DNA of 64,000 nt from an uncultured virus (IMG/VR IMGVR_UViG_3300008448_000047) (IMGVR_UViG_3300008448_000047), one strand, 5' to 3'; counted from the first letter of the stretch, positions 14,218-31,999 are shown. Notes: generated by a model from the letters alone, not told the origin. Numbers and translations are program-made.

Positions 14218-14231
14218 GGCAAGAGATTACT

Positions 14232-16687: not shown

Positions 16688-16704
16688 GTTGTTCCTTTCT
16701 GTAG

Positions 16705-16944: not shown

Positions 16945-16957
16945 AGTAGCTACTTAG

Positions 16958-17185
16958 TTATGTAATTACAACCTCTTCCACCACCGTAAAAGAGTTGTCA
17001 GCGCTTTTTGGCAGTGGGAGTGTCACTGGCTCCAGGGCCAGAAGGAAACGTTCGACGCTCGAGAGGATTGTCGAGACGTCTTCGGGTGAGAAAGGTTTGT
17101 CAGTCACTGCCAAGGCGGCCGCATGCGAGATGCGTTCTTGTAGTAGCGCTGCAGCGATGACTATCTCGTCGTAGATGTCATCCAT
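16958..17185 (-). CDS. Hypothetical protein
   Basis: Overlaps upstream gene; motif A lies in its 3' end. Confidence 0.55.
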   Translation of the reverse strand: MDDIYDEIVIAAALLQERISHAAALAVTDKPFSPEDVSTILSSVERFLLALEPVTLPLPKSADNSFTVVEEVVIT

Positions 17186-17420
17186 TTTCAGGCTCGTCTT
17201 TCATCACTCCATACTCCAGAACAGCGTCGAAGACTTCGCCACGCAAACTGTTGAAGGAAACATCTTCCAACTCTGAAACAATCATCGCCCACTTTTCTGC
17301 AGGCAACCACATTTCGTCGTCGGGGTCAAAGTCGAACGACTCTTTGTCAAACAAGAGCACAAAGACGTCGTCGTCGTCATGCATCTCATTGATGGCCGCT
17401 TTCAGTTCAGAAATCTTCAC
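17178..17420 (-). CDS. Hypothetical acidic protein
   Basis: GTGA coupling. Confidence 0.6.
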   Translation of the reverse strand: MKISELKAAINEMHDDDDVFVLLFDKESFDFDPDDEMWLPAEKWAMIVSELEDVSFNSLRGEVFDAVLEYGVMKDEPENG

Positions 17421-17731
17421 TTGTACTCATTTCCATATTCGCCTAGGTCACCTGTGCGATTGATTGCTGGGTAAACAGGTCCGTAGCCATTTTTGTCGAG
17501 CAGGTCGCTGACCATTTCTAGACACTCTCCGTCGGTCGCTAGTTCTCCGTCGATGCGCACAATGCGAATAATTTCCTTGATGATTTCCTCAGGCGTCATG
17601 AGCAACTCTTTCTCTAGTTGTTTTTCTACTTCTATGCACGCGTTACACATTTCTTCTTCACACGTGCAGTTGTCAGGTATCGGGAATTCCCAAACATCAG
17701 CGGGGATGGGAATGTTGTGTACCGCTCTCAT
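17417..17731 (-). CDS. Hypothetical protein
   Basis: ATGA coupling. Confidence 0.6.
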   Translation of the reverse strand: MRAVHNIPIPADVWEFPIPDNCTCEEEMCNACIEVEKQLEKELLMTPEEIIKEIIRIVRIDGELATDGECLEMVSDLLDKNGYGPVYPAINRTGDLGEYGNEYK

Positions 17732-17958
17732 TGTTCTTGCAACACTTCATCTAGCGCTTCATAGTCGAGCGATTCGTCTAACCAGGCTACGCCGTCTGGG
17801 GTTCCTGCTGACGTGTACACAAGATAGTTAGTTGCGAAATCACGGTACGTCACTTCCTTATCAAGGCTTATGACCATGTTGTACAAAAATTCGTCATTCA
17901 TTAGCCACAAGGCCACGTTCCACGTTGCGTGGTTTTTCCATCCGTTGTAATCGCTCAT
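17728..17958 (-). CDS. Conserved phage hypothetical protein
   Basis: MSDYNGWKNHATWNVALWLMNDE motif, common in phage early regions. Confidence 0.7.
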   Translation of the reverse strand: MSDYNGWKNHATWNVALWLMNDEFLYNMVISLDKEVTYRDFATNYLVYTSAGTPDGVAWLDESLDYEALDEVLQEQ

Positions 17959-18425
17959 GCATCCACTCCACAGTTTGCGCAATACGAGTCGTACTCGTGA
18001 TTGCATAAAACCTTCTCAATAATTTTTGGCTCCACTGTGCCGTAGTCAAGGCTGTAACAGTGAATCTCTACAGGGTCGTTTTCTTTAGCGACGATGACGT
18101 AGATGTATTCCGCATAGCACTCGATTGCTTCTTCAAACGTCTTTATGAACGGTTCGTTTGGCGTATCGGTGTAATACTTGCCCCAGTATTCTTTTATCTC
18201 TATGTGGTTGCCGAACGTGTCGTCATCTTCTTGCTGAAATGGGCTAAGGAAAGACCAGCCGTTATGTTCGTCAAGTAGGACACGACATGTTGTTTCGTAC
18301 CCGTCACGACGGATGAACTCGGAAAGAACGCCCATCATGTGTGTGGGGTATCCATCCCAGTGGACATAGCGCCCCTCTAGTTCGCCGTTTTCCAACTGGC
18401 GTGCAACAACTGAACGAGTTGCCAT
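17955..18425 (-). CDS. Conserved phage hypothetical protein
   Basis: MATRS...YVHWDGYP...EYIY motif. Confidence 0.7.
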   Translation of the reverse strand: MATRSVVARQLENGELEGRYVHWDGYPTHMMGVLSEFIRRDGYETTCRVLLDEHNGWSFLSPFQQEDDDTFGNHIEIKEYWGKYYTDTPNEPFIKTFEEAIECYAEYIYVIVAKENDPVEIHCYSLDYGTVEPKIIEKVLCNHEYDSYCANCGVDA

Positions 18426-18586
18426 TATTCTTCCCCCTTTATGATTTCGACGGTGATGTTTTCCATGTGTGGACCAAAATCTTCTGTGTTGCGATTGCTA
18501 TAGAAGAAATCGTCAATCATGCAGTTCAGCACCTCGTACGGGTCTACCTCGTCTGGTACCGACAGTTTGATAAGAATCTCTTTCAT
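18425..18586 (-). CDS. Small hypothetical protein (53 aa)
   Basis: GAGGA RBS; TAATG coupling to next gene. Confidence 0.55.
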   Translation of the reverse strand: MKEILIKLSVPDEVDPYEVLNCMIDDFFYSNRNTEDFGPHMENITVEIIKGEE

Positions 18587-18589
18587 TGT

Positions 18590-18742
18590 TTATTCCTCTT
18601 CTTCGTCGTCTGGCATACAGTTGATGCAGGTGTAGATGATGATTGCGGGCTTGACATCGTCTTTGATGCTCAGCATCCCGTAGTACGGGTTCCAAGTGTC
18701 TTTGCACTTGTGGCAGTTCCAGTAGGTCAGTTCGCCTGACAT
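18590..18742 (-). CDS. Small zinc-ribbon protein (50 aa)
   Basis: CHKC...CINC; AGGGGA RBS. Confidence 0.55.
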   Translation of the reverse strand: MSGELTYWNCHKCKDTWNPYYGMLSIKDDVKPAIIIYTCINCMPDDEEEE

Positions 18743-18846
18743 GTGTTCCCCTTTGATAGTTAGTAGTTAGTAGTTGTGGGGTGCACGCTACACCCCACTT
18801 AGCCATTTTTGCAAGTGGCTACTGCTAGATTATTTTGTGACTTTGG

Positions 18847-19056
18847 TCACGCCATAACTTTGACACGGTGGCGCTCCACCCATACCTCGCCCTTGCCGTT
18901 TAGTGGCTTGACGAGATAGTCAATGTGTCCGAAGCGGACACGCACGTCAGCAATCTTCACGCCGACGTCTAGCCCTTCCATTGAAAGCACGCCGACTTCA
19001 CCACGTGCTGTCTCAGGCTTGATTTTCTCTACCTGCTGTTTGTCATAGGTTTCCAC
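18847..19056 (-). CDS. Hypothetical SH3-like protein
   Basis: AAGGAG RBS; DYLVKP...GEVWV. Confidence 0.6.
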   Translation of the reverse strand: METYDKQQVEKIKPETARGEVGVLSMEGLDVGVKIADVRVRFGHIDYLVKPLNGKGEVWVERHRVKVMA

Positions 19057-19250
19057 TGCTTCTCCTTTTCTGTAGTGGTGACCTAAAAGTTATCCAGTAC
19101 ACCTGACAAACACAACACGAAAGGCCAAACTTTTCTCGAGGGCCACGTGTCATCCACCACCGTCTGGTTGTAGCCCCGTTACCGGCAGCGGCCCCGCGGG
19201 GCTTCTGGGGTTCCGCCGCAGCCGGCAGCCGGTCGAGTAGTGTCAAGAGT

Positions 19251-19631
19251 ATGAACCGATGGGACAAAAACATTCAAGCACTATCCGCCTATGTTGCCGA
19301 GAACGGCACAGCACTCGTACCGACCTCGTACAAATGTTTAGTGGACGGCGAGACGGTATCGCTGGGGTCGTGGGTGACCTATGTGCGTATCAAGTACCGC
19401 GCTGGAACGCTTCAGATGGAACGCATGGCTCAGATGGAAAACTTCCCTGGTTGGACATGGGGTCCTTGTAAGCCTGGACCGATGGGTAACCCTGACCGTG
19501 ACAAGCAGATGGTCGCTATGCGTCAGGCTGGCAAGTCACTCCAAAGCATCGGAGACGAATACGGCTTGTCAAGGCAACGAGTTCATCAAATCCTAAATCG
19601 CATGGGACATCGGGAAACCGCTAGTGCCTAG
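19251..19631 (+). CDS. Helicase-associated (HA) domain plus sigma-region-4-like HTH
   Basis: LGSWV..VR..Y..G.L..ER......GWTW; SLQSIGDEYGLSRQRVHQI. Confidence 0.75.
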   Translation: MNRWDKNIQALSAYVAENGTALVPTSYKCLVDGETVSLGSWVTYVRIKYRAGTLQMERMAQMENFPGWTWGPCKPGPMGNPDRDKQMVAMRQAGKSLQSIGDEYGLSRQRVHQILNRMGHRETASA

Positions 19632-19848
19632 ACACCCTGAAGTAAAAAAAGAACCACGACCATCTCTACTTATCGCTTTAGGCGGAGTAGGGATAGCGGG
19701 TTCTTTTTATGGAAGTATTCTTTGGGTTGTGTTGTGGTTTGTTCGTTCTGCTGACATCGCAGAATGGAACGCCCCTTATTGGAAGTGTGCTATGACTGCC
19801 CTTGCCGTAAATGCCTTGCGCCTTTACGACAAAAAGGTATTCGACTAA
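19624..19848 (+). CDS. Small membrane protein
   Basis: Two hydrophobic segments. Confidence 0.55.
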   Translation: MPRHPEVKKEPRPSLLIALGGVGIAGSFYGSILWVVLWFVRSADIAEWNAPYWKCAMTALAVNALRLYDKKVFD

Positions 19849-19883
19849 GCCTCTTCCGCCACCGTCAAAGAGTTGTCCTCGTC

Positions 19884-20108
19884 TTATTCGGACTGACGGA
19901 ACACCATCAGTCCTGCGACTGCTGTGCTGTCAATGTGCGTTGGGTCTGCGAGTGCGATACCTGTCACCCACGCTTCTTTCGGTAGTGGCTGTGTCGGGTC
20001 ATCACCCACAATGCCACGCACCTTCTGTATCGCTTCGCTAATCGCTTCGCCATCTGTGTCGGCTTCTACATCTACGCCGACCATGACCTGAACACGGTAC
20101 TTTGCCAT
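19884..20108 (-). CDS. Hypothetical protein
   Basis: AAGGA RBS; KYRVQV...VEADTDGEAI. Confidence 0.6.
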   Translation of the reverse strand: MAKYRVQVMVGVDVEADTDGEAISEAIQKVRGIVGDDPTQPLPKEAWVTGIALADPTHIDSTAVAGLMVFRQSE

Positions 20109-20275
20109 TGTTTCCTTCTTTCTGCCCGTACCTTCCATACGGGTCGGGTGTCTTTCGTGCCTCTACGGGCTTCCTGTGGGGCGAGTTCAGGCGAGTGAGT
20201 GGCTGAAAGGGGGAAATGCCACCCACTCGCCACGCAATCGGGCAGGCTCACTACTGCGAACCTGCCCGATACGGT

Positions 20276-21811
20276 CTAGCGATAGGTGAGTTCGTGACCT
20301 GTCACGCTCTCGTACACACCTTTCATGTGTGACGGAACGATGGACTTCACTTTCTCGCCCTTTGACATGGCTTTCAGCATTGTGACTGCCTGCTCAGGTG
20401 TCTCACAGGTGTAGATACCGTGACGCTTGATGAGTGCCACGCACTCCATCACTAAGTCCTCACCCCAACTGTCACCCTTGCCTGTGACCCCACCATCGGT
20501 GACCCAAATGACAGGGGAAGTATTGCGCTGACGCTTTCCGATAGCCCAACGCAAGGCAGGTGCGTCCACTCCGTTGCCACCGTTCGGTGACGGAAGTTCT
20601 TTCACGCACTTGCCCTTGTTGGCGACCACATACAGGTTCGGGCGACTACTGCGCCCACCTGAATACTGCGCCACGAGTGCTGACGGTGCGCTCAACACCA
20701 TCTCCATCACTTCATCGTGTTCCAGCGACATAGAACCACTCGTGTCAATGAGTACCACGCCACCTGCGCCCTTCACAGTACGGTCAAAGATACGGCGTTC
20801 AGGGTCGGTGAGTAGGCGAGACATACGGCGTGGGTTACGCCCTGTCTGCGATGAGACACGCTTGCGTCCGATAGCACCCATCACATTACGCTCTAACGCT
20901 GGTGTGGAGATACGCAGTTCTTCCCACAAGGTCGCACGACCTTTCTTCGGGATAGTTCCACGACCCCAACGGTCATGTGTGAAGTTCTCGCTTGCCTTCT
21001 CTGTCGGAGACTTGCCATCTTCATCTTTGACTTCGCCTGACGGTGCGCCTTCGCCCTCTTTGCCTTCGCCCTCTTTTTGTGGCTGTGGCTTTCCTGTGGG
21101 GTTGTCACACAATGCGCCGACTTGTTCCTCTACCCACTTTGCGTAGTTCTCCACATAGCCAAATCCTGACAGGTGGAGACGAGAGTGAGTGGCGTGGAGT
21201 GATGGAGTAGAACGCTGGTTGTCCATTACAGAGCGAAAGTAGTTCTCGCCTGTGTGGGAAATCGTCTCCAACAGTTTCACCCACGATGGCTCGTGCTGTG
21301 CGACACCACGCAAGTATTGTTCGTATCCTGCCGTGCCACGAAACGCAATAGCGTCCATCACGCACGAGAGAAAGTCGCCCACCTCTGCTGTGCGCTTTCC
21401 TGCGAGATACTCGCTTCCGTCTGAAAGGTGAGTTGTTGGCTCAAATCCTGCGTAAGAACACAGGACATTGACACGCAGTTCCTCGCACACTACGAGCGTA
21501 GGTGCTTTGGCGTAGCCACGAGCCACCCACTTCTCAAACTGCTTCGCCGTAGGTGACACCTTTGCGTGTGTCATCTCGTGCGCTCGTATCACGCGAGAAT
21601 GTTCGGTGTCGTACATCGGCACACGCATCTCACGCAAGGTGACTTCCGTTGCTGGTTCACCACGCTTGGGTTGGACATTGACAATGTTCCAACGCTTCTC
21701 TGCGTCTTTCGCTGTGTTGTCTCCACGAGACAACATCTCAGGCTCAGGGTACTGTGGCGTAGTACCCTGAGCGATGTTCGCCGTAATCGGCGTTCCGTTT
21801 GACTTGCTCAC
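20276..21811 (-). CDS. vWA (MIDAS) protein with N-terminal HExxH metallopeptidase-like motif
   Basis: AHEMTH; LIDTSGSMS; WVTDG. Confidence 0.85.
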   Translation of the reverse strand: MSKSNGTPITANIAQGTTPQYPEPEMLSRGDNTAKDAEKRWNIVNVQPKRGEPATEVTLREMRVPMYDTEHSRVIRAHEMTHAKVSPTAKQFEKWVARGYAKAPTLVVCEELRVNVLCSYAGFEPTTHLSDGSEYLAGKRTAEVGDFLSCVMDAIAFRGTAGYEQYLRGVAQHEPSWVKLLETISHTGENYFRSVMDNQRSTPSLHATHSRLHLSGFGYVENYAKWVEEQVGALCDNPTGKPQPQKEGEGKEGEGAPSGEVKDEDGKSPTEKASENFTHDRWGRGTIPKKGRATLWEELRISTPALERNVMGAIGRKRVSSQTGRNPRRMSRLLTDPERRIFDRTVKGAGGVVLIDTSGSMSLEHDEVMEMVLSAPSALVAQYSGGRSSRPNLYVVANKGKCVKELPSPNGGNGVDAPALRWAIGKRQRNTSPVIWVTDGGVTGKGDSWGEDLVMECVALIKRHGIYTCETPEQAVTMLKAMSKGEKVKSIVPSHMKGVYESVTGHELTYR

Positions 21812-21817
21812 AATGCC

Positions 21818-22558
21818 CTACTTCTGTGGGGTCATTGTGTTGATAGCGATAGCGTCCACCACGCTCTTAGCACGGTCACGGAAAACCATTTGCGCCGCCT
21901 TTTTTGTTCCGAGTGCTGTACGCAGTTGGTCAAAGGCGTAGAACGCACGGAGAGAGATACGGCGTTCGCCTGCGTCTGCCATCTGACGGGCGTAGTCACG
22001 CAAGTCCTCGCTCAGACGGGCGAGTGCTGACGGGTGTGGCTCGTTGATACGGATACAGACGGGGAAACGGTCTTTGAGTGCCATTGGTAGGTCGCTCATC
22101 TGCTCAATGTTCGTGGTCATCACCACGCTGAAACCTGCGTTGGGGCGCAATACCTGACGGGTCTGTGGGTGTTCCCACTTTGCGCTTTCAGGGCTGTCTG
22201 TCATCGCCAGCAAGGTTGCGAACACATCGCCACCTGCCTTGTCAATCTCGTCAATAACGAGACGACCACCTGTGTTGCCATCGCCCTTCCACGCACGGAT
22301 AGCAGAGCCTTCCAGCCACGACCACGAGCCGTGGTCATTTGGTTGCCAGCAACCTGTTACATCTGCGTTGGTCATGTCATCGGTACAGATGAGACGGTGT
22401 GCGCCTGCTTCGGTGTTGCCGTATGTCAAGCCTGCGAATGTCTTGCCTGTTCCTGGCACTCCAAACAGAATGAGACGGTCTATGCCTGCTTCCAGCGCAT
22501 CATTGACTTCTTGCCAGCAGGCAGGAAGTGTGGTTGTTGTGTCTTGGACACTTGTCAT
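21818..22558 (-). CDS. MoxR/CbbQ-type AAA+ ATPase
   Basis: Walker A GVPGTGKT, Walker B VIDEID, MTTN, ALKDRF, ISLR. Confidence 0.88.
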   Translation of the reverse strand: MTSVQDTTTTLPACWQEVNDALEAGIDRLILFGVPGTGKTFAGLTYGNTEAGAHRLICTDDMTNADVTGCWQPNDHGSWSWLEGSAIRAWKGDGNTGGRLVIDEIDKAGGDVFATLLAMTDSPESAKWEHPQTRQVLRPNAGFSVVMTTNIEQMSDLPMALKDRFPVCIRINEPHPSALARLSEDLRDYARQMADAGERRISLRAFYAFDQLRTALGTKKAAQMVFRDRAKSVVDAIAINTMTPQK

Positions 22559-22709
22559 TGGTTTCCCCTTTCGTGGGAGTTTGTTGTGGGTGTGAAGTGT
22601 AGCCACATTGTTAGTGGCACACAACCTTGTTAGCCATCATTTCTAATGGCTCTCTATGTGGGGTGGGCGAGCATCTGCCGTGTCTCCCACCCCACACGAG
22701 ACTTTGTGA

Positions 22710-23123
22710 CTAGGCGACCTGCGCTGTGTCGGTGGACTTGGACTTTGCCTTCGCATCAGGCGAGATGGCTGTGGTACGCACCTGTGAGTAGGTGGTGACC
22801 TTTGTGATGGTGTCTGCGACTTCTTGTGAGACGATGCCCACCTGAACTGCGCTCTCCAACATTTCACCGTCCACTACGGGCTTGGTTACTTTCTTGTAGG
22901 TGGCAGGCTTCACGAGCATCGCCAACTTGTCTGCGTCATAGGACTTACGCTGTCCGTCCACGATGGCGACTTTGATGCCGTCCACAACGCTTGTGTTGAT
23001 GCCTGCGATGGCGAGTGCTTCACGCAACGCCTGCTCTGCTTCCTTCTTTTGTGCTTCTGCCTGTGCGCTGGCTTCTTTTGCCAACAGGTACAGGCGTGTT
23101 GCTTGCTCTACTGAGTGTGTCAC
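22710..23123 (-). CDS. Hypothetical coiled-coil protein (Gam/Gp157-like at best)
   Basis: AAGGA RBS; TTGACA-17-TAAGGT promoter upstream. Confidence 0.6.
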   Translation of the reverse strand: MTHSVEQATRLYLLAKEASAQAEAQKKEAEQALREALAIAGINTSVVDGIKVAIVDGQRKSYDADKLAMLVKPATYKKVTKPVVDGEMLESAVQVGIVSQEVADTITKVTTYSQVRTTAISPDAKAKSKSTDTAQVA

Positions 23124-23166
23124 GGCATTTCCTTCTTTCTTGGTAGGTGTCAAAGTGACAATGTGT

Positions 23167-23221
23167 ACCTTACAGGTGTCAATGGTAGTTGTCAATAGGT
23201 TTCTGTGTGTCGTTTGTCACA
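23167..23221 (-). promoter_or_regulatory. Sigma-A-type promoter with upstream CRP-like box
   Basis: TGTGACAAACGACACA (23221-23206); TTGACA-17 bp-TAAGGT. Confidence 0.7.
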
Positions 23222-23568
23222 CGCCTACCGACCTTGCCATCGGGCTGTTTGGTACAGGGTGAAAGATACAGGGTGTAAGGCACAGGCACAACACTCACAC
23301 AACATCTTTCTTCTGTGTCTGTTGTCACAGGGTCGGGCAGGCGCACAGGTACGCACACGCACGGGCAGGCGCACACACGCACGGGCGCAGGGGGCTTCTT
23401 CCACCACCGTCAGCCTTGTGAGCCCCGTTGGGCGAAGACGGCTCGCGGGGCTGTCACCCCAGATGTCGCCCCAGAAGTCGCATCTGGTTCAGCCGAAGTT
23501 TGGACTTGCTCAAAGTTTGGGGTTAGTCCGACTGTGATGTGTCCTATGTGATGTGTCCGACTAATCCC

Positions 23569-23613
23569 TGTGACAAACGACACATTGACATTGTGCCTTA
23601 CACTCTGTAACTT
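23569..23613 (+). promoter_or_regulatory. CRP-like box abutting sigma-A promoter
   Basis: TGTGACAAACGACACA-TTGACA-17 bp-TAACTT. Confidence 0.75.
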
Positions 23614-23647
23614 GTAATCACCTACTAGCCCACGAAAGGGGACAGAG

Positions 23648-24103
23648 ATGACCACATCATCACCTGTGCGTATGGCAGAACTTGCCCAGCGCACACTCAC
23701 TATGGAAGGGGGCGAAGGCTTCACTATGGAACAGGCGATACTGTTCGCATACTGCGCTGACGGTTTCCGTCTTCTCGCAACAGCAGAAGACATTTACGAA
23801 GCGTTGGAGAGCCTTCCACACATTCAGTCGCTCAAAGAAGACGACCAAGGCATTGGCATCATCACAACAGGTTGGGCTGCGCCACTCGGTGACAACGGAG
23901 AAGTAGAAGGCGCACCAAGCGCACACCCTGAGCGCAAGCGTGTACGCCTTTGCTCGTGCGTTGAGCGTGGTGGAAAAATGGGGTCGGCTCTCGCCTTTGA
24001 GACTGACCCTGACGACCTCGTGACAGACGAAGGCAACGGAACAGGCTCACTCGCTAACGCCTTGCTCTCTGCTCTCAACGCACTTCTCGCCAAGAACAAC
24101 TAA
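23648..24103 (+). CDS. Hypothetical cassette protein
   Basis: Own promoter, AAGGGG RBS and terminator; ends AKNN. Confidence 0.75.
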   Translation: MTTSSPVRMAELAQRTLTMEGGEGFTMEQAILFAYCADGFRLLATAEDIYEALESLPHIQSLKEDDQGIGIITTGWAAPLGDNGEVEGAPSAHPERKRVRLCSCVERGGKMGSALAFETDPDDLVTDEGNGTGSLANALLSALNALLAKNN

Positions 24104-24126
24104 ACCACAACCCACTTCCAACAGTT

Positions 24127-24160
24127 AGCCCTCACTTGCCTCGGCAGGTGGGGGCTTTCT
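24127..24160 (+). terminator. Intrinsic terminator
   Basis: GCCCTCACTTGC/GCAGGTGGGGGC hairpin plus T run. Confidence 0.65.
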
Positions 24161-24364
24161 GCTGTCCCCGAACTTCCCCACGAAGGGTCTTCCACCACCG
24201 TCAAAGTAGTGAAGACGGGGGTCGGTAGCCCCGGCGGGTTTTATTTAGGCCAGATAGTTCTGATGGCCGCTGCGCTGATGGCCGTGATGGTAGACAAAGC
24301 AAAACCCCCTGCTTCGCCAGCGTGAGACGAAACAGGGGGTTGAGCGTGACAGGGGTAGGAAAGA

Positions 24365-24646
24365 CTATCCCTTGTCGGTCTGTTGAGAACGGTAGAAGTC
24401 CATAGCGGGGACAGACATCTGCCCTTTATCTTCCAGTTCACGGGCGAACTTGACAAGGATAAGACCCATGCGCTCGTCATCTACCAAGTGATAGTGGAAG
24501 AAACGGTGCTTGGTGATGTCGTGTAGAACAGCCATGACAGCGTGTTCCCCCGTTGAGGCAAGCGTGTAGTAATGCTCGTAAAGCGTTTCCACTATTTCTT
24601 CATCTGTCCAGTATCGCCAACTGGCGAGGTCTACTCGTATGTCCAT
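24365..24646 (-). CDS. Hypothetical protein
   Basis: AAGGAG RBS; followed by a terminator hairpin. Confidence 0.65.
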   Translation of the reverse strand: MDIRVDLASWRYWTDEEIVETLYEHYYTLASTGEHAVMAVLHDITKHRFFHYHLVDDERMGLILVKFARELEDKGQMSVPAMDFYRSQQTDKG

Positions 24647-24849
24647 GTATCTTCTCCTTGTATTAGACCGAGTGATGAGCCGTTGTCCCACTTGACATGA
24701 ACAGTACCCATGTCGTCAATGTAGTCCACAACGCCTTCGTCACCACTTTGTAGTTTCGTGTATGGGTCTGAGCAACGGATAAGGCGCACCCGCTTTCCAG
24801 CAAGTGCGCCCTTCACCCATTCGTTTGCGAGTTGGTCAATGCGTTTCAT
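24631..24849 (-). CDS. DUF4314-like protein
   Basis: RVRL...DPY..L..G.EG.V..IDD.GT.HV.WDNGSSLGLI.GED. Confidence 0.75.
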   Translation of the reverse strand: MKRIDQLANEWVKGALAGKRVRLIRCSDPYTKLQSGDEGVVDYIDDMGTVHVKWDNGSSLGLIQGEDTWTYE

Positions 24850-25442
24850 TAGCAAATCTGAAAGCCACCGCAGTTTGCTAAGAAAGTAGCGAACTCACGG
24901 ACATTCTTCTTGTCAAACGGATAGTTCTTCGCAAAGTGTTGCTGACCGCCAGTTCCCCCACAGGCGTTACATTCTTTGGTTTCTTCCAGCCAGCCTTCGG
25001 GCTTCTCAACAGGTGTGTAGGTCGGCAAACAACCATTACCTTCGGTGGCTATCTCGTTGGCAAAGGCTTCCGCAATGCTGTATTCCACAGAAGGCGTGTA
25101 GTCGCCATTGTTGTCGGGGTTGGTGTACCAAGTGCGCTTACCAGTCGCCTGACAATGAACACAGGGGCGAATAGGCAAAGACGCAAGCCACTCGTTGCGT
25201 GTCTGCTCGTAGTTGTCCAGCGTTCCGTCACGCAGGCTCTTGCGTAGAACTTTGGCAAGTTCCTTCGCATCTTCTCCGTCAAGCCCGTCTCCGTCATTGG
25301 AGTATCCGTTCTCAACCATGCTCGTAAGTTCAGGTGCGACAAACTCGCAGAACTCCCACAGGGGACGCCACCACCACACATTGTTGCGGAAGTATTCGCC
25401 CTTTTCATTCTTTGGGTCTTGCCCAAATACGTCCATTCCCAT
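24849..25442 (-). CDS. Hypothetical protein with DnaJ-like zinc finger
   Basis: YFRNNVWWWRPLW; CxxCxxTG x2; CGGFQIC end. Confidence 0.75.
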   Translation of the reverse strand: MGMDVFGQDPKNEKGEYFRNNVWWWRPLWEFCEFVAPELTSMVENGYSNDGDGLDGEDAKELAKVLRKSLRDGTLDNYEQTRNEWLASLPIRPCVHCQATGKRTWYTNPDNNGDYTPSVEYSIAEAFANEIATEGNGCLPTYTPVEKPEGWLEETKECNACGGTGGQQHFAKNYPFDKKNVREFATFLANCGGFQIC

Positions 25443-25576
25443 TCCGTTCCCCTTATCTATTAGGTGTTGAGTGGGCGGGTGTGCCTTCCCTACGACATAC
25501 CCCCTTCCCTTCTAGTCCCCCTACGGGCAGGTCGCTTGCGAACTCGTAGGCTAGTTGGGTCGGTTGCCCACATAGA

Positions 25577-25633
25577 AGGGTACAGGTGTCAAGCACAGTT
25601 AGCAAGTGTCATTTGTCACAGAACAGGTGTTCG
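25577..25633 (-). promoter_or_regulatory. Promoter with CRP-like box and adjoining LexA-like box
   Basis: TGTGACAAATGACACT, TTGCTA-17-TACCCT; AGAAC-AGGT-GTTCG at 25620-25633. Confidence 0.65.
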
Positions 25634-25976
25634 GTGAGACACATTTGGTGCGACTGTCTCGTGAGACTAACTGGGGGAAAGTGTCTCAGACTGGGAGAAG
25701 GGTCTTCCACCACCGTCAAAGTCCTGTGGGAGCCCCGCGGGACAAAAATCCCGTCCGGGACTTCCGCCCCATCTGTGTTGCCATCGGCGACATCGGCGAC
25801 ATCGGGTTGCGTTGCTTGCCGACAGCCACTAAGGTATGCCCATGTCATTAGTCTCTATTGTTGTAGTCATCGCACTCATCGCATTGTTCGCAAGTGGCTA
25901 ATGTCACACAATAACTATTTGACAAGTGGCTACTAACTTTGTAGTCTTAGATTCTCAACTCACAAAAGGGGGAATC

Positions 25977-26333
25977 ATGACTGATTCTGTCATTGAGTGG
26001 GAAGAGGTGAGCAACACTTCAGACGAAGTGGAGTGGGACTTTGCGACAGACTTGTTCGCTGAGGTTGCCAACACGCTCATTGCCCATAATGAGGAACTTC
26101 ACGAAGGCGACACTTGGTGGCGCATTGAGGGATTCCCATTGTGGAGTGGTGGGCTTGACGGTATTTTCCACGCCGATACGCCGATGAAGTTGTTGGAAAG
26201 TATTACCGTTCGTTCGGAATGGTCATTGCGCTACACGCTTGACCCCGAAACAATGGTGCTTACTTGTCACCTCTCTCACCACGATGCAAGCGGAACTTTT
26301 ACGGTGAAGGCAATGCCTAATCCAGACCGCTAA
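25977..26333 (+). CDS. Hypothetical cassette protein
   Basis: TTGACA-17-TAGTCT promoter, AAGGGGG RBS, terminator. Confidence 0.7.
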   Translation: MTDSVIEWEEVSNTSDEVEWDFATDLFAEVANTLIAHNEELHEGDTWWRIEGFPLWSGGLDGIFHADTPMKLLESITVRSEWSLRYTLDPETMVLTCHLSHHDASGTFTVKAMPNPDR

Positions 26334-26355
26334 CAACTGAACAACACGGCGAACT

Positions 26356-26384
26356 GCCCGTCTCCGAAAGGGGGCGGGCTTTTT
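26356..26384 (+). terminator. Intrinsic terminator
   Basis: GCCCGTCTCC-GAAA-GGGGGCGGGC-TTTT. Confidence 0.75.
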
Positions 26385-26548
26385 GCTTGCCCAACGACTG
26401 CCCGTGCGCCGTCTCCCGCCACCGTCGGAAGGTGCGAGCCCCGGACGGTCGCATCGCAGCGCGGGGCTATCGGGCGCATCTGCGCCGTCGCCACTCAGTT
26501 TCGTCGCCACCTGCCAACTCGCCACCTGTCTGTCACCCCTGTCTCGCC

Positions 26549-26592
26549 TGTGACAAACGACACTTGACAAACTGTGTTATCGCCTGTATCTT
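26549..26592 (+). promoter_or_regulatory. CRP-like box abutting sigma-A promoter
   Basis: TGTGACAAACGACAC-TTGACA-17 bp-TATCTT. Confidence 0.75.
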
Positions 26593-26635
26593 CTACCTTG
26601 TAATACACACCAACTACCCATAGGGGGGTACACAA

Positions 26636-27211
26636 ATGGAAGAAGAACAGACACCATCTGAACTATTGGCTTCTGTAATCGCTCGCGCGATGGAAGTCAA
26701 GTACGAGATGTGCGTGGACAACAATGGAATGTGCGATACGCCACCTGTACTGCTCGGTGAACTACCGACAGGCGAAGGCTTCATCGCACCCGACTACAAC
26801 GATGGACACCCAACCGACACCTTGCCGTTGATGCTGTCAGCACTCGCTGAAACGATGATGGCACAGTTCTCATCGGTTCAATGGAAGTGGCTTGCGTATG
26901 TCGTAGAAGGCTACGCAAAGCCAACACACGAAGGGGTGGAGAGCCTGCCCGAAGATTGGAGCCGTGGAATGTACGAAGAAGAGTACAAGACGAACCCAAC
27001 AAGCGATGTGCGTGAAGGGCTTATCGTGGGTCTGTATCCGTGGGAAGGACAAGCCATCGGAACAACCGTGTTCTATCGCTACAACGACAAGGGCTTGCCT
27101 GTCTATGACGAGCCTGAGATGTTGGAAGGCGAGATGGAAGGGACTGTCGCAGACATCTTCAAGGCGTTCACGATGGCGTGTAAGACAATCACCAACGCCA
27201 AGAACAACTAG
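26636..27211 (+). CDS. Hypothetical cassette protein (possible paralog of 46853..47482)
   Basis: Own promoter, RBS, terminator; ends AKNN. Confidence 0.75.
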   Translation: MEEEQTPSELLASVIARAMEVKYEMCVDNNGMCDTPPVLLGELPTGEGFIAPDYNDGHPTDTLPLMLSALAETMMAQFSSVQWKWLAYVVEGYAKPTHEGVESLPEDWSRGMYEEEYKTNPTSDVREGLIVGLYPWEGQAIGTTVFYRYNDKGLPVYDEPEMLEGEMEGTVADIFKAFTMACKTITNAKNN

Positions 27212-27229
27212 ACCGTACCCCCTACGGAA

Positions 27230-27271
27230 GGGGGGTCGCCTGCCAAGTACGGTGGGCGACCCCCCTTTTTT
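27230..27271 (+). terminator. Intrinsic terminator
   Basis: GGGGGGTCGCC...GGCGACCCCCC-TTTTTT. Confidence 0.75.
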
Positions 27272-27352
27272 CGTGTACCCAACCAGCCCTCTTCCACCAC
27301 CGTCAAAGCAAACCCGTTGCGCTTAGCAGCCCCGCCCGGTATTATTTATGAG

Positions 27353-27574
27353 ATGTCGTACGTTCGCTATGTGTGTGAGTTCTGTAATCACGAAGTCCAG
27401 CCAGGGCAAAGTGGAACAATGAAGTTGGTGTTGGCGTGGGTGCGTTCAGACAACAACACAGGAATAAAGGGTGTGAAGAACCAGCACAAGTACGCTCATT
27501 CCATCTGTGTGGAAACAGAGACTAAGCGTGGTGGTAAGCGAGAAGGCTCAAACGGCGAGCAGACGCTGTTTTAG
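27353..27574 (+). CDS. Small zinc-binding protein
   Basis: CEFC...HSIC. Confidence 0.6.
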   Translation: MSYVRYVCEFCNHEVQPGQSGTMKLVLAWVRSDNNTGIKGVKNQHKYAHSICVETETKRGGKREGSNGEQTLF

Positions 27575-27621
27575 AGTGCGAACAGCAACGCAATCGCAAC
27601 GAGAACGATGATGGCAGTCAC
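27571..27621 (-). CDS. Hydrophobic micropeptide MTAIIVLVAIALLFAL
   Basis: GTGA overlap with stop of 27618..28007; four similar peptides nearby. Confidence 0.65.
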   Translation of the reverse strand: MTAIIVLVAIALLFAL

Positions 27622-28007
27622 TTTGTATCCTTAGATACGAGCACCCAGCCACCTTTGCCGTCTCCGATGTAGGTCTCTTTGCCTTTCCAACCCCAAGCCC
27701 AGCGACAGCATGAAGGGTCAAGGGTACAGTCATCATTACTGTCAAAGTCAGCGTGATGAATGAAGTTCGGGTGACAGCCACCACGAAGTTTCTCTCCGAG
27801 CAACGGAAAAGCATCTAGAAGTTTGACAACGCAGTCGTGACACATACTGATAAAGCGACTTTCATCGCTACCAAGTAGGACGCCCACATTGTCGTCAAAG
27901 CCACCGTAGTAGCCGAAGTGGTCAATAGGCAAAGACCAGCCCCCGTCAGGAAGGCTGTCTTGTTGTGTGTTCGGTTGCTCTACACCACAGGTATCGCAGG
28001 TAATCAT
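27618..28007 (-). CDS. Cys-rich hypothetical protein
   Basis: CDTC...GYYGGFDD...CHDC. Confidence 0.7.
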   Translation of the reverse strand: MITCDTCGVEQPNTQQDSLPDGGWSLPIDHFGYYGGFDDNVGVLLGSDESRFISMCHDCVVKLLDAFPLLGEKLRGGCHPNFIHHADFDSNDDCTLDPSCCRWAWGWKGKETYIGDGKGGWVLVSKDTK

Positions 28008-28015
28008 TGTGTCTT

Positions 28016-28219
28016 TCAGGGTTGGTAGATGTTGTACCCGTATGGGTCGTACAGAGTTGTCGTGGTCTCACACGGGTAGTGAAAATACTCGCAGTCAGGG
28101 ACGCCTTGTTTCTCATCTCCGATAGATGCGATAAGAAATAGAGTTGCGCCGATGAGAGTTGTCCAAAAGACAAACCTCACGAACGAACGCACCTTGTAAT
28201 AGATAGGTGGGTGGCTCAT
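28016..28219 (-). CDS. Small membrane protein with CEYFHYPC motif
   Basis: Single TM; paralog at 31801. Confidence 0.7.
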   Translation of the reverse strand: MSHPPIYYKVRSFVRFVFWTTLIGATLFLIASIGDEKQGVPDCEYFHYPCETTTTLYDPYGYNIYQP

Positions 28220-28425
28220 TCCTTCTCCCAACTACGGAAGTATTCAGGGTCGCCGACCCAAAATGCGCCTTCACCATTTGCCTTGTTCAGCCATTCGTCA
28301 AGGTTGGCATGAAGGAAGGCACGGTACCCCTCGGTCACCTCATCTGTGTTGTGCTTACAGATGTCCGACTGAACATTGTCGCCATCGGCATTGGTGTAGA
28401 TGATTTCTCCACAGAACTCTTTCAT
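28216..28425 (-). CDS. Hypothetical protein, probably leaderless
   Basis: ATG about 8 nt after the -10 TACCAT of a CRP-box promoter (28476-28433). Confidence 0.6.
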   Translation of the reverse strand: MKEFCGEIIYTNADGDNVQSDICKHNTDEVTEGYRAFLHANLDEWLNKANGEGAFWVGDPEYFRSWEKE

Positions 28426-28747
28426 GGGGTGAATGGTACAGGTGTCAAGCACACATGACAAGTGGCAGTTGTCACATCGTTGAGAGACAAGCAAGGGTGA
28501 GGTCGTCAAGACGGGGACACATCACGATGAGTTCTTCCACCACCGTCAAATCTCTCTGGGAGCCCCGATGGGCCGCTGCGGCCGTCCGGGACTTCCGCCC
28601 GCACTCGTGCGCCTGCGCCCGTGCGCCCGTGGGAGTTTCTCGGCTCGGCTGTCGGGGTTGGCTCGGACTGCCTCGCCTGTCGTGTGACAAACGCCACTTG
28701 TGTTAGTGCTGTGTTGCCTGTACCCTGTCAGGTGTAAGGGGGTGATT

Positions 28748-29110
28748 ATGAAAGCAACCAAAACAGACCTATCGCTTATGGCGTTACTCTGCTCAGACCG
28801 TGAAGGTCGCCCGTGCGATACGGGCGAAGTCTTAGCCCAAGTGGGCAAGATGAACTTTCTCGCTGTGTGCGGTGGCAAGTGGGCGAAGGTTTACGATTCA
28901 GGCATGGAGACTGTCGGCGTGTTGATGCTCTGCGGAGAATCTCGCGCGGTGGAAGTCGTGCTAGACCCGTGGGATACCTACACAGTGCGCCGTGTGCGCC
29001 TTGTGACCCGTGGAGAACTGAAGGGTTCAATCGTTGTGGAGTCGCAAGTTTCAGATGTCTATTGTGACAACTTGAGCGAAGTCGTCTATTCCGCTTCCTG
29101 CTGGAAGTAA
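28748..29110 (+). CDS. Hypothetical cassette protein
   Basis: CRP-like box at 28683, AAGGGGGTG RBS, terminator at about 29134-29166. Confidence 0.7.
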   Translation: MKATKTDLSLMALLCSDREGRPCDTGEVLAQVGKMNFLAVCGGKWAKVYDSGMETVGVLMLCGESRAVEVVLDPWDTYTVRRVRLVTRGELKGSIVVESQVSDVYCDNLSEVVYSASCWK

Positions 29111-29652
29111 CCAACAACCAAAACAACCGAGCAAGCCCGCCGTGTGCCCCCCGCACGGCGGGCTTTGCTTTGCCCGTGTGCCTGTGACCTTGACCCTTGC
29201 CCGTGGTGCGCCGTCTTCCGCCACCGTCAAAGTAAGTGAGATGGGGGCGAGAGCCCCGCTACCCCGCCCCCATCAAGCTCAGCTCAGCTCGACGGGCACG
29301 CTCAGCTCGAGGATTTTCTGCGTTTGTTTTTTGAAAAAGTCACGCTGCGTGGTCAAAGTTTGTCAAAACTCACGGAGAGTGGTCATTTTTGCTCGACTTT
29401 ACTTTTTAGTTCGAGAAAAAGCAAGCGAAGAGGGCCAACTTCCGGCTTTCTGGCCAGATGTCCCTGGCAGCCCCGATGCGGCCGCACGGCCGTCCGGGAC
29501 TTCTGCCCAGATGGCATCGCCAGACGGAGTTGCTCAGGTTGTCCATCGCTCTTGCTCGGTCAAGCCAAACTCGTGCTCGTCTCGGTGTGACACACGACAC
29601 GTTGCGACTGTGGCGTACAGGGTGTAGTTTGCTATTACCTAAGGAGGGGTTT

Positions 29653-29865
29653 ATGCCGGAGTTCTATCCGGAAGAAACCAAAGTCCAAAAGTCAAAACGA
29701 TTTGCTAAATCCCAAGGAAAGATAGTAAAAGCATTTAGTCACACAAAGTGTGGTAGGTGCGGAACCATCATTGGTGAAGGCGTTGAGTGTATTTGGCTCA
29801 ATGGAAAAGGTTGCTTCCACAAGCAAGGCGAATGTCCAAAGAAAGAAGAACAACAAGAAGAATGA
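29653..29865 (+). CDS. Small zinc-binding protein
   Basis: AAGGAGG RBS; CGRC...HxxxxC; CRP-box promoter at 29586. Confidence 0.7.
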   Translation: MPEFYPEETKVQKSKRFAKSQGKIVKAFSHTKCGRCGTIIGEGVECIWLNGKGCFHKQGECPKKEEQQEE

Positions 29866-29912
29866 CAGCGTTGATAGTTGCGCTGGCAGTTCTTTTATTG
29901 TTGGCAATCTGA
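29862..29912 (+). CDS. Hydrophobic micropeptide MTALIVALAVLLLLAI
   Basis: ATGA overlap; followed by terminator. Confidence 0.65.
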   Translation: MTALIVALAVLLLLAI

Positions 29913-30413
29913 ACGAAAGCCCGTCACAGAAATGTGGCGGGTTTTTTTGTGCCCGTCTTCCACCACCGTCAATGTAAATGAGACTGGGTCATCAGCCCCG
30001 CTGCTAACCCAGTTGATGTCCAGCATCTGAGTTCCTCACGACGTACGACATCGGATTATCAACTTTGTTTTCTTTTGTTTTTTGGAAAACGCTCACTCTG
30101 CGTGGTCGGAAAGTCAAAAAGTTCACGGAAAGTGGCAAAAACGAAGCGAAAGTCAAGTTCTTTGGAGTTTTTTGCTTGGCGCAAGCCCCCGTCGCTCACC
30201 CGTCGTACGTGCGATGGGTTTTCCCCGCGGTAGCCCCGTTTACCCAGTGCGGGGAAACGGGACTGTTCCGTGGTTTCTGGCCCTGGACGGCCCGGCGGCC
30301 CGGAAGTCGGACTGGCGCAGCGCAACTCGGACTGACCTGAGGCTCGGCTGTGACAAACGACACTTTGACATTTGCGCTTGACACCTGTAGCCTGTAGGCA
30401 AGAAGGGGGGGAA

Positions 30414-30581
30414 ATGAAGTTTTATGCCAACATCACGCTCAACATAGATGAGTTTGATGCAGATAACGAAGAAAAAGCAAAAGAAATAATAGATTCGTAC
30501 ATCACAAGCCTTGCAAACACTGAAGATGAAAGTCTTTCGTGGCAAGAAATGAACTACGAAGTGAAAGAAGCCACTGAATGA
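30414..30581 (+). CDS. Small acidic hypothetical protein
   Basis: CRP-box promoter at 30349 (TTGACA-17-TAGCCT); RBS. Confidence 0.65.
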   Translation: MKFYANITLNIDEFDADNEEKAKEIIDSYITSLANTEDESLSWQEMNYEVKEATE

Positions 30582-30634
30582 GCATCGCCATTACGGCGTT
30601 TACTCTTTTTTTGTTGTTCTCCGCCGTGAACTAA
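30578..30634 (+). CDS. Hydrophobic micropeptide MSIAITAFTLFLLFSAVN
   Basis: ATGA overlap; followed by terminator. Confidence 0.6.
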   Translation: MSIAITAFTLFLLFSAVN

Positions 30635-30845
30635 GAACCGCCCGTCCCTGAAAGGGGGCGGGTTTTTCTTTTCCCCGTCTTCCGCCACCGTCGTAAAAGT
30701 GCCATCACGAAGGTCGTGAGCCCCGCTGATTTACCAGATGCTCGTGTCTGGTTCGCCAGACAAACCGTGAACTTCGGCGACTCCAACTCGTGCCTGTGAC
30801 AAACAACACTTGACACTCCTTGTGCTGTTCAGTACACTCGCCCGT

Positions 30846-31130
30846 ATGCAAATAATCACCACTATCAACGAACCGATACCTTTTATCGGAACGGTTGATG
30901 AAATGTTAGCCAACTACAACACTCACCTATGGTGGCAAGACCCCGAATCGTGGGAATCGGTATGTGACCGCTGCGCCTGTAAAGGTTGGCACAAGGCTGC
31001 CAAGTATCCGTGTGGGACAGAGCCACCTCGCCGTGATGTCGTTGTGTGGGTTGATGCAGAAGGTAATCAGCATCGCAACCACCCGACCCTTGCTGCTTTG
31101 GGTATCGCTAGCGATGAGATTGTAGAGTGA
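30846..31130 (+). CDS. Hypothetical Cys/His protein, probably leaderless
   Basis: CRP-box promoter at 30795 (TTGACA-17-TACACT); ATG 7 nt after -10. Confidence 0.65.
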   Translation: MQIITTINEPIPFIGTVDEMLANYNTHLWWQDPESWESVCDRCACKGWHKAAKYPCGTEPPRRDVVVWVDAEGNQHRNHPTLAALGIASDEIVE

Positions 31131-31177
31131 CCGCTGTCATTTTGACGGTTGCTGTTTTCTTGCTGCTTGCTGTCTAG
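31127..31177 (+). CDS. Hydrophobic micropeptide MTAVILTVAVFLLLAV
   Basis: GTGA overlap; followed by terminator. Confidence 0.65.
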   Translation: MTAVILTVAVFLLLAV

Positions 31178-31800
31178 TAGATAATCCACTTGCCGCCCTG
31201 CTTAGTCGTGGGGCGGCTTTGTGCTGCCCGTAATCGCCTCGCATCGCCGTCTCTCTGCCCGTCTCGGCGACTTGCGGCTTGATGGTGTCCCTAAATACCC
31301 TGCTTCCAACCTGAGCCTTTCTAGATGTCTAGCGTTGCTCAAAGTTGGAACATCTCAGCCCGTCTTCCGCCACCGTCAGTTTATTGCGGGTAGTCGCGGG
31401 GCTCTCGAGCGCCAGCCGCACGGGGAGTTGCACGGGCGGCAGACCTCAGATGGCATCGGCTTTCGGGCAGTTTTTCGGTTTTCTTATTTTTTTAGAAACT
31501 GAAAAACCCGAAATCCTTTATTTTGGCGACTTCACGAACTTGACTTTTGAGTTTTTCGTGTTATGTTGGCAAACTTTGCCACACCCCCTTCTTCCGCCCG
31601 CGTTAGCCCCGTAAAGCTCGAAGAGCTGCACGGGACTGTCAGTCTTCTGGACGACGGAGTTGTTCTTCGGCTTCGGCTTGTTGCTGGCTCGGCTTGGAAC
31701 TTCGGAAGGCTTCGCAACTTTCTTTTCGGAAAGACTTGACATCGTGCCTTGTTGCTTGTAAGGTACAGGGTGGGTGGAGTGCCTAGCGAAAGGAAATGCT

Positions 31801-31998: not shown

Positions 31999-31999
31999 G

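Follow-up and report, generated by a model that had tools for sequence, protein, structure and literature searches.

The DNA analysed in the present study is a 64,000-nucleotide (nt) stretch assigned to an uncultured virus (IMG/VR record IMGVR_UViG_3300008448_000047), referred to below as the window. It is a segment of a large tailed phage, and its subject is a block of about 13 kb, at 19,240–32,150, purged of most short palindromic words. The window codes for an HK97-type major capsid protein (Pfam Phage_capsid, 2.1e-41), WhiB, DUF932 and ParB proteins, an Rpf-like transglycosylase, ribonucleotide reductase, a primase-helicase and a VanY-type lysin, and carries 10 transfer RNA (tRNA) genes at 43.7–54.6 kb; Rfam and tRNA scans gave no match inside the purged zone. 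The capsid protein is 48% identical to those of ~90-kb Gordonia and Brevibacterium phages (e.g., Gordonia phage ChisanaKitsune), and a megablast search of the zone against 50,697 phage records gave no match. The runs containing the sequence are labelled as lake water, freshwater and 'fungus' metagenomes; the WhiB, DUF932 and Rpf-like transglycosylase genes have an actinobacterial flavour, and the phage appears to infect Actinobacteria. A second IMG/VR record, G001 (74,950 bp), is identical across the zone and adds 24 kb to the window (87.9 kb together), and a complete relative, G002, is a 137,811-bp circular assembly with a 127-bp end overlap that codes for tail sheath, baseplate, terminase and portal proteins.

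Coding-potential scoring gives about 20 genes in the zone, arranged in units on both strands; besides the operon of an ATPase, they encode mostly small, acidic proteins without a family, the acidic ones having isoelectric points (pI) of 4.2–4.7 and net charges of -9 to -21. The site list, sliding windows and edge sequences place sharp borders on the purge and divide the block as follows:

19,240–32,150, no strand: the whole purged zone, 12.9 kb, its left edge being a GC-rich patch (19,123–19,236) and its right edge lying just after a terminator (32,066–32,094).
19,870–29,210: the core of the purge, with eight six-letter palindromes in 9,331 nt, 16-fold rarer than outside (0.86 against 13.45 per kb).
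29,211–32,150: the weaker right third, where AT-rich palindromes are still missing and GC-rich or mixed ones are partly back (11.6 sites of a strict set per kb).

Counted in 2-kb bins, many palindromic four-letter words fall to zero at ~19–32 kb. The original prediction, made from the sequence by eye, had CCGG, GGCC, TCGA, AGCT, TGCA, AATT, ACGT and TTAA absent from 19,870 to 23,390; according to the site list, all eight are missing over a longer interval, 19,842–24,230. The depletion that it extended to 29,210 was confirmed as well, the end point was not, since the zone reaches ~32,150, and AATT, TTAA, TATA and ATAT do not occur at all from 18,500 to 32,217. The purge fades rightwards, the strict-set density rising from 0.8 through 2.9 to 11.6 sites per kb (36.7 in the DNA outside), and the longest stretch without the 12 strongly purged palindromes is 1,852 bp in the zone against a maximum of 222 bp outside it. 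In 3-kb sliding windows, all 20 positions in the zone (11.7–21.0 four-letter palindromes per kb) lie below all 138 positions outside (minimum 41.7), and in G002 all 21 zone windows lie below all 237 outside windows. There is one such zone per genome; in G002 it spans ~91.3–104.6 kb, i.e., ~13.3 of 137.8 kb, roughly a tenth. Non-coding DNA of the zone is purged too (8.8 sites per kb, against 43.1 outside), the coding part of the zone containing 5.0 per kb.

The depletion persists under a codon-preserving null, in which 300 synonymous-codon shuffles were made of 17 open reading frames (ORFs) of the zone (7,692 nt) and compared with 18 genes outside it (23,865 nt). Twelve of the 16 four-letter palindromes are strongly purged, with none of the 300 shuffles as low as the observed count for any of them; the observed and expected numbers are 0/18.7 for AATT, 2/33.8 for ACGT, 0/20.7 for AGCT, 0/12.1 for ATAT, 1/19.1 for CCGG, 5/29.8 for CGCG, 0/21.9 for GGCC, 0/11.1 for TATA, 0/30.7 for TCGA, 5/30.1 for TGCA, 0/9.8 for TTAA and 0/20.9 for GATC. 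CATG (17/31.3) and CTAG (6/11.3) are reduced to about half, and GCGC (38/30.8) and GTAC (29/29.8) are spared, while in the outside genes GATC alone is missing (0/67.9). A second-order Markov expectation computed over 19,870–31,500 gives a similar list, namely AATT 0/19.2, ACGT 5/54.0, AGCT 4/35.1, ATAT 0/13.3, CCGG 11/34.1, CGCG 10/62.8, GGCC 12/55.3, TATA 0/11.0, TCGA 5/47.2, TGCA 6/48.1 and TTAA 0/9.8, with GCGC (55/64.4) and GTAC (40/50.5) near normal. Start and stop codons were considered as an explanation of the leftover CATG and CTAG and were ruled out, as none of the 21 CATG lies on an annotated start and only 4 of the 15 CTAG lie on stops. The zone has a G+C content of 0.54–0.55 against ~0.48 outside, and a third-codon-position G+C of 0.57 against 0.475.

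The program enumeration of all four- and five-letter words showed that several non-palindromic words are purged as well, and that the loss on the sense strand affects both members of a reverse-complement pair equally: the observed and expected numbers are 0/17.0 for CGACG and 0/10.3 for CGTCG, 0/4.6 for CCTCC and 0/15.4 for GGAGG, 0/4.8 for CATCC and 0/7.4 for GGATG, and 0/7.0 for GACTC and 1/5.7 for GAGTC. Since asymmetric words are lost equally on both strands, the agent reads double-stranded DNA and not mRNA or translation. Among interrupted palindromes, CCNGG, GANTC, GCNGC, GGNCC and TTNAA are low, and CTNAG, GTNAC and ACNGT are not. The near-total loss of six-letter palindromes extends to those whose core is one of the spared words GCGC and GTAC; AGCGCT, TGCGCA, AGTACT and TGTACA are absent where their density outside predicts ~2–3 of each. 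Such a list fits a set of sequence-specific DNA enzymes, and not a general dislike of palindromes, hairpins or AT-rich DNA. GATC is absent from all 87.9 kb of the phage, all 137.8 kb of G002 and every related contig examined, including an unpurged one. Outside the zone, the phage contains no GGCGCC and four CCGCGG, and G002 contains one of each. This suggests two tiers, in which host systems that the phage cannot counter are avoided genome-wide and the others are avoided only until early genes act.

The purge recurs in relatives. Three IMG/VR relatives, whose counterparts of a 511-aa zone protein are 78, 82 and 66% identical, have the zone in the same position, and its sharp left border and the set of spared words are likewise shared; the orthologous gene of the relatives that keep the purge is 64–80% identical in DNA. 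In four lineages the gene of the 511-aa protein contains 1, 1, 1 and 3 sites against 49–59 expected, with 300–542 differences in ~1,500 bases, which means that the purge has been maintained and not merely inherited. The nearest cultured relatives, Gordonia phage ChisanaKitsune and its kin, have no purged zone, and the analogous genes of ChisanaKitsune hold 90 sites against 96 expected and 69 against 71; the ATPase/CobT-like pair of these relatives has no significant similarity to the zone pair of ATPase and 511-aa protein, so that vertical descent of the zone genes is not shown by this comparison. The purged words differ between lineages: in the relative L016, CATG is purged (5/39.5) and ATAT is tolerated (10/19.8). 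More distant relatives, located via a 191-aa zone protein, range from G003, where the entire 30.9-kb contig is in the purged state, through G004 and G005, with zones of at least 17 kb in which AATT and TGCA are tolerated and AGCT is missing throughout, to G006, with no purge beyond GATC. This spread of purge states is what would be expected from changing host restriction repertoires. Restriction enzymes, which the original prediction had named as the cause, are a well-supported candidate for the selective agent behind the site loss, given the codon null, the strand symmetry, the word sets that vary with lineage and the maintenance of the purge despite 300–540 base differences per 1.5-kb gene.

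The genes of the zone and their arrangement are:

19,251–19,631, plus strand: first zone gene, 126 aa, with a helicase-associated domain (PF03457, 8.5e-14) and a sigma-70 region-4-like helix-turn-helix (PF04545, 3.1e-06).
19,884–23,195, minus strand: four-gene operon for a 161-aa protein, an AAA_5 ATPase (21,818–22,624), the 511-aa protein (20,276–21,811; phrog_33218) and an 84-aa protein.
23,648–24,103, plus strand: cassette gene, 151 aa, pI 4.4, net charge -12, its position varying between lineages.
24,365–25,442, minus strand: three-gene cassette whose products have 197 aa (acidic, with Cys motifs), 74 aa (DUF4314) and 108 aa, ending at a terminator (24,303–24,341).
25,926–26,333, plus strand: cassette gene, 135 aa, pI 4.3, net charge -17, followed by a terminator at 26,356–26,379; relocated in relatives.
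26,636–27,211, plus strand: cassette gene, 191 aa, pI 4.2, net charge -21, with 19 homologues, none of them named.
27,618–28,431, minus strand: three-gene cassette for small, mostly acidic proteins of 129, 71 and 71 aa.
28,700–29,110, plus strand: cassette gene, 136 aa.
29,653–29,977, plus strand: small gene with a strong ribosome-binding site; CCGG is kept at 29,656 and 29,668, aligning with the relatives L015 and L016.
30,372–31,130, plus strand: two small cassettes, for proteins of 69 aa (pI 4.2) and 106 aa; both have a promoter box of their own, and their terminators lie at 30,640–30,663 and 31,192–31,217.

The four-gene operon is the longest unit and the cleanest part of the zone, with 1 site against 49.6 expected in the gene of the 511-aa protein and 0 against 31.2 in the ATPase gene. 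The site-bearing stretch at 29.27–29.67 kb comprises a conserved non-coding element and the start of a small gene. Searches of the zone proteins against Pfam (E up to 1), PHROGs and a protein atlas gave no useful function, and no nuclease domain was found in the zone by the Pfam and PHROG searches. For the 191-aa protein, one of five models had a confident fold (predicted local distance difference test, pLDDT, 84 against 46–50), and a Foldseek search of this predicted fold against the PDB found no match at E <= 0.001. The cassettes at 25,926 and 26,636 sit elsewhere in G002, L015 and L016, and the homologue of the gene at 28,016 is inverted in G002; a flanking SNF2 helicase is 91% identical in G002, and the zone proteins are 28–91% identical.

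A promoter-like element, at which the units begin, and a polar motif recur between these cassettes. The promoter box has 10 matches in the 87.9 kb, nine of them inside the zone, against 0–2 in shuffles; the copies were derived from the repeat families D5, D6, D10 and D13. A generic promoter scan was not enriched (7 found, 8.4 expected), and terminator-like sites were (34 against 14.7), the units ending at terminator-like hairpins. The 15-nt motif A has 17 matches with at most two mismatches, all on the plus strand and all at 12,957–31,363, against 0.17 expected by chance; its range of 14.7–31.4 kb, plus the weak match at 12,957, overlaps the purged zone without coinciding with it. Motif A runs in one direction although the flanking genes point both ways, which indicates that it is read at the DNA level. 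It is followed, after 10–26 nt, by a conserved 7-nt box inside a hairpin arm or loop, the stem sequence of which varies from copy to copy. Perfect stems of at least 7 bp occur in 24 of 48 linker copies from four lineages, against 7% of shuffles; the signal is confined to these perfect-stem counts, as the patches after motif A, folded as single strands, have energies no better than shuffles (z from -1.5 to +1.1). The copies are:

23,568–23,619, plus strand: promoter-like element, made up of a box of 16 nt, a hexamer resembling TTGACA and a -10 box resembling TAnnnT.
Further promoter-like copies: plus strand at 26,548, 28,682, 29,585, 30,348 and 30,794; minus strand at 23,222, 23,330 and 25,621.
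19,150–19,236, plus strand: left boundary element, consisting of motif A (one mismatch) and a GC-rich hairpin patch with CCGG, GGCC, CGCG and TCGA; in the same place in three relatives.
19,852–19,866, plus strand: motif A.
23,397–23,411, plus strand: motif A, then a hairpin of the form box-N18-complement.
24,188–24,202, plus strand: motif A, then a hairpin resembling a terminator, and a patch (24,231–24,283) that holds CCGG and three GGCC.
25,703–25,717, plus strand: motif A.
26,412–26,426, plus strand: motif A (one mismatch), then a hairpin.
27,290–27,304, plus strand: motif A.
28,533–28,547, plus strand: motif A, then a patch with two GGCC and one CCGG (28,571–28,590).
29,214–29,228, plus strand: motif A, then a hairpin with a 10-bp stem and an AGCT/TCGA cluster (29,276–29,310).
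29,956–29,970, plus strand: motif A, then a hairpin with a 7-bp stem and the conserved box in its loop.
30,678–30,692, plus strand: motif A.
31,363–31,377, plus strand: last copy of motif A.

Restriction-type sites cluster after motif A in the window and likewise in relatives, and the patches there had been described as packed with such sites and interpreted as decoys, methylation sensors or spots shielded by a bound protein. The counts do not bear this out. The 100 nt following each of 12 motif A copies hold 30 sites in all (25 per kb), five times the density of the zone genes (5.0 per kb) and below the 43.1 per kb outside, so that the patches stand out only against nearly empty genes. Their own composition (GC 0.60) predicts 63.4 ± 7.1 sites, and all 1000 mononucleotide shuffles gave at least the observed number; CCGG, GGCC and CGCG alone number 19 against 30.1 expected. 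One of the clusters that had been cited, 30,279–30,303, lies ~320 nt past the nearest motif A copy and not within 100 nt of it. With fewer sites than both the background and the GC prediction, the patches lose the enrichment on which the proposed roles rested, and those roles are unsupported. The patches are GC-rich hairpin linkers between cassettes, where the purge has partly eased; the simplest reasons would be that such words are inevitable in stems made of G and C only, and that these stems have a rapid turnover.

A ~100-bp AT-rich element occurs twice (29,310–29,420 and 30,060–30,170), each time after a motif A hairpin; it contains two CAC-N5/6-GTGG inverted repeats, aligns in two relatives and could be an operator or an origin-like site. 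In one freshwater run, a related strain differs by an insertion of 13 nt at 26,524, in the linker that follows the motif A copy at 26,412, and by a deletion of 207 nt at 18,568–18,776. Just left of the zone, the region 14,000–18,000 contains small minus-strand genes and four further motif A copies and is enriched in palindromes, with 20.5 and 26.0 six-letter palindromes per kb against 13.2 ± 3.0 elsewhere and 18 TCGA in one 2-kb bin.

Elsewhere in the genome, three independent assemblies stop at ~12,400–12,950 in window coordinates (12,942 for G001, ~12,399 for a further IMG/VR contig, ~12,619 for a Logan contig), and the window and a fourth contig read through this interval; the cause may be a strain variant or a physical end. 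The closest neighbours of the terminase (Brevibacterium phage Cantare, 40%; Felix-O1-like phages, 31%) gave no inference of packaging type. G002 contains two giant ORFs of ~2,460 and ~3,460 codons between the portal and capsid genes (38,628–46,007 and 50,408–60,796) and, at ~122–127 kb (L023:1976-7681), a kinase-like gene, two 2-oxoglutarate (2OG)-Fe(II) oxygenase-like genes and a tryptophan-halogenase-like flavoprotein gene, which may form a modification or auxiliary metabolic module.

The zone is a fast-evolving modular block with a private promoter family, such as would be expected for early host-takeover genes, the early timing being suggested by this architecture. The explanation favoured here, and held to be probable, is that it is an early host-takeover module under continuing restriction-enzyme selection against recognition words. 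It would act as an array of self-contained units, each with a promoter, one to four genes, a terminator and a polar hairpin linker, which the host RNA polymerase probably reads straight after infection, and it would have to stay intact and be expressed while host restriction enzymes remain active. The rest of the genome would be protected afterwards, keeping normal site frequencies except for GATC, GGCGCC and, in part, CCGCGG. Equal exposure of the whole genome would make the purging of a tenth of it useless; hence the zone either is the part exposed first, and alone, or is the only part whose integrity matters. As DNA methyltransferases of PF00145, PF01555 and PF02086 were not found in G002 or G001, self-methylation does not explain the tolerance of sites outside the zone. 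It may reasonably be supposed, as originally predicted, that the zone DNA is exposed unmodified on entry, and the most likely protection of the rest would be staged DNA entry with the zone first, as in T5 or T7-like phages, a step for and against which the odds seem about even. Alternatively, all the DNA would enter at once, only cuts in the early genes being fatal and later cuts being prevented or resealed after the early proteins have been made. A more specific proposal is tentative and rather doubtful, namely that the borders of the purge mark the exact first-step DNA of a staged entry that arose, separately from that of T5, in a family of large phages with sheathed tails that infect freshwater Actinobacteria, with the motif-hairpin linkers read during entry as sites where the incoming end pauses or is protected.

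Several observations weigh against a site-free, first-entering segment. The zone is not free of sites, since the core retains five CCGG, five GGCC and eight CGCG and the right third holds 11.6 sites per kb. The circularity of G002, with its 127-bp overlap, fits a permuted genome as well as hidden repeats, and the authors of PMC12455610 caution, in the accessible part of that report, that with headful packaging it is not fixed which DNA enters first. A contig covering the zone and its flank has a depth of 11.2 against 10.5 for its neighbour, i.e., no sign of doubling in that sample (a contig-level figure, the raw-read runs giving 0 and 3 reads), and the contig ends in other assemblies do not match the zone borders. 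A tblastn search with 10 T5 pre-early proteins against 18,800–32,600 gave a best E of 0.13, with no homologues of dmp, A1 or A2; no known anti-restriction family (Ocr, ArdA or similar) was found in the zone by Pfam or PHROG searches, and the one protein that was folded had no structural match. The transcription units lie on both strands, unlike the one-directional leading region of T7. Finally, the contig-wide purge of G003 (30.9 kb) and the weaker contig-wide depletion of G004 mean that a strictly local logic may fail group-wide; they warn that the strictly local pattern is a feature of the present lineage rather than of the whole group.

Were there no staged entry, the whole genome would enter, cuts outside the zone would be survivable and cuts in the early genes would block rescue. 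Restriction cuts can be resealed in vivo; exonucleases would have to be blocked and cohesive ends resealed, and G002 codes for exonuclease, Erf-like and RuvC-like recombination proteins. The circular assembly, with no fixed ends detected, suits this explanation, and units on both strands agree better with genes that must be expressed than with an entry pulled by transcription. A single genome broken at dozens of positions (the outside density is 36.7 strict-set sites per kb) is, however, unlikely to be restored, and the purge of non-coding zone DNA (8.8 against 43.1 per kb) goes beyond the needs of reading frames, though promoters and terminators also need protection; on balance, entry of the whole genome at once is considered unlikely to be the reason for the purge. 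Another way of protecting the larger part would be a phage-made modification that leaves the zone unmodified and so obliged to avoid sites. Some phage hypermodification pathways use enzymes of the oxygenase, kinase, halogenase and glycosyltransferase types, and candidates for them are present, both in the G002 cluster of two 2OG-Fe(II) oxygenase-like, kinase-like and halogenase-like flavoprotein genes and, near the zone, as a glycosyltransferase gene and a 3′-phosphoadenosine-5′-phosphosulfate (PAPS)-reductase-like gene. Methyltransferases of the three families named above are nevertheless lacking, modification by a nucleotide-pool route would cover the zone as well, no way to spare 13 kb is evident, and the genome-wide avoidance of GATC should be needless under a general protective modification, so that this explanation is quite improbable.

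It is very unlikely that the zone is an imported block from an element with genome-wide avoidance and that its signature is a relic, even if its higher GC (0.54–0.55 against ~0.48), the contig-wide depletion in G003 and G004 and the lack of significant similarity of the ATPase and 511-aa protein to the pair of the nearest cultured relatives all point that way: a relic would decay, yet the gene of the 511-aa protein keeps 1–3 sites against 49–59 despite 20–36% base differences, which largely refutes import as a sufficient cause, and cassettes have been reshuffled or replaced while the purge persisted and the word set changed between lineages. Equally little probability is given to avoidance of the phage's own early nucleases, which would cut short words and so require the co-present zone DNA to be without them. 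The strand symmetry would be accounted for, and a comparable idea was proposed for T5 protein A1 according to the part available of bioRxiv 10.1101/866236; the purge nonetheless covers over 12 palindromes besides several asymmetric and interrupted words, too many specificities for the few unassigned proteins of the zone, no nuclease domain was found among them, and the purged sets vary between close lineages that share core genes. Constraints unrelated to nucleases, such as avoidance of cruciforms, RNA hairpins or AT-rich silencer binding, or a mutational bias, might be read from the loss of all four AT-only palindromes, from the odds ratios of TA and AT (0.61 and 0.73, against 0.76 and 0.92 outside) and from the higher third-codon-position GC of the zone, but are extremely unlikely: four-letter palindromes cannot form hairpins, the purge is as strong for GC-rich and mixed ones as for AT-rich ones, it spares GCGC and GTAC, it removes asymmetric words from both strands, and long hairpins are abundant in the linkers (24 of 48 with perfect stems of at least 7 bp, against 7% of shuffles).

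Avoidance of restriction sites and short palindromes across the genome is known in phages; the loss in the zone is likewise strand-symmetric and word-specific, but here the broad purge is limited to one block and the other 90% of the genome is normal. T4-type promoter early stem-loop (PeSL) cassettes are small early units between conserved promoter/stem-loop linkers whose order varies among relatives. The zone has similar traits, as promoter and stem-loop linkers bound its cassettes and their order and content differ between relatives, its linker adding the one-directional 15-nt motif and the conserved 7-nt box in a variable hairpin; to our knowledge, no restriction-site purge has been reported for PeSL regions. 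The first-step-transfer DNA of T5 and BF23 (Tequintavirus) resembles the zone in being about a tenth of a 120–140-kb genome and in carrying many repeats and small early genes equipped with strong promoters and terminators of their own. The available text of bioRxiv 10.1101/866236 indicates that EcoRI cuts T5 only at sites in the first-step-transfer DNA. Unlike the zone, this T5 region shows no general loss of palindromes (58–80 four-letter palindromes per kb, against 53–77 elsewhere), which makes the present case far more extreme than the model, and it lies in a 10,139-bp terminal repeat, whereas here no repeat or genome end was found; the present phages further differ from T5 in lacking dmp, A1 and A2 homologues, in having a tail sheath and in their apparent actinobacterial host.

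For the T7-like Murciavirus, the accessible part of PMC12455610 states that only Type I motifs in the first-injected region confer sensitivity and that selection is concentrated there. There, a single Type I motif is at issue, in podoviruses whose ends are known and whose entry is driven by transcription, whereas in the zone more than 12 Type II-like words are affected over 13 kb with units running both ways. Leading regions of conjugative plasmids are, in the text available of PMC13478746 (2026), the first DNA to enter, GC-rich, codon-adapted and a site of anti-defence genes; in the 1,751 plasmids covered they were 'not consistently depleted' in 4–8-bp palindromes, while the zone, GC-rich likewise, is depleted almost totally. 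A search of the openly accessible literature, with subscription journals outside its range, found no kb-scale phage region swept of most short palindromes. The description of the locus as an undescribed anti-restriction or DNA-entry system was too strong, as the principle is in print as far as the available parts of PMC12455610 and bioRxiv 10.1101/866236 go. The concentration of site avoidance on early-exposed DNA is known; new with respect to the literature searched are the breadth of the purge, the sharp limits that keep it within one 13-kb block, and its conservation, with word sets that differ by lineage, in a family of uncultured lake phages.

The zone is a very clean natural case of restriction pressure on a sub-genomic scale, and it predicts staged entry, or an unusually broad anti-restriction function, in uncultured lake phages. 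Its small acidic early proteins make up a short list of candidate counter-defence factors, and the purge itself offers an inexpensive sequence mark by which to find early or anti-defence regions in phage genomes from metagenomes. The words purged in a given lineage may report the restriction enzymes of hosts that have never been grown. If the borders do mark first-step DNA, a palindrome scan would reveal both the order of entry and the location of anti-defence genes in uncultured phages.

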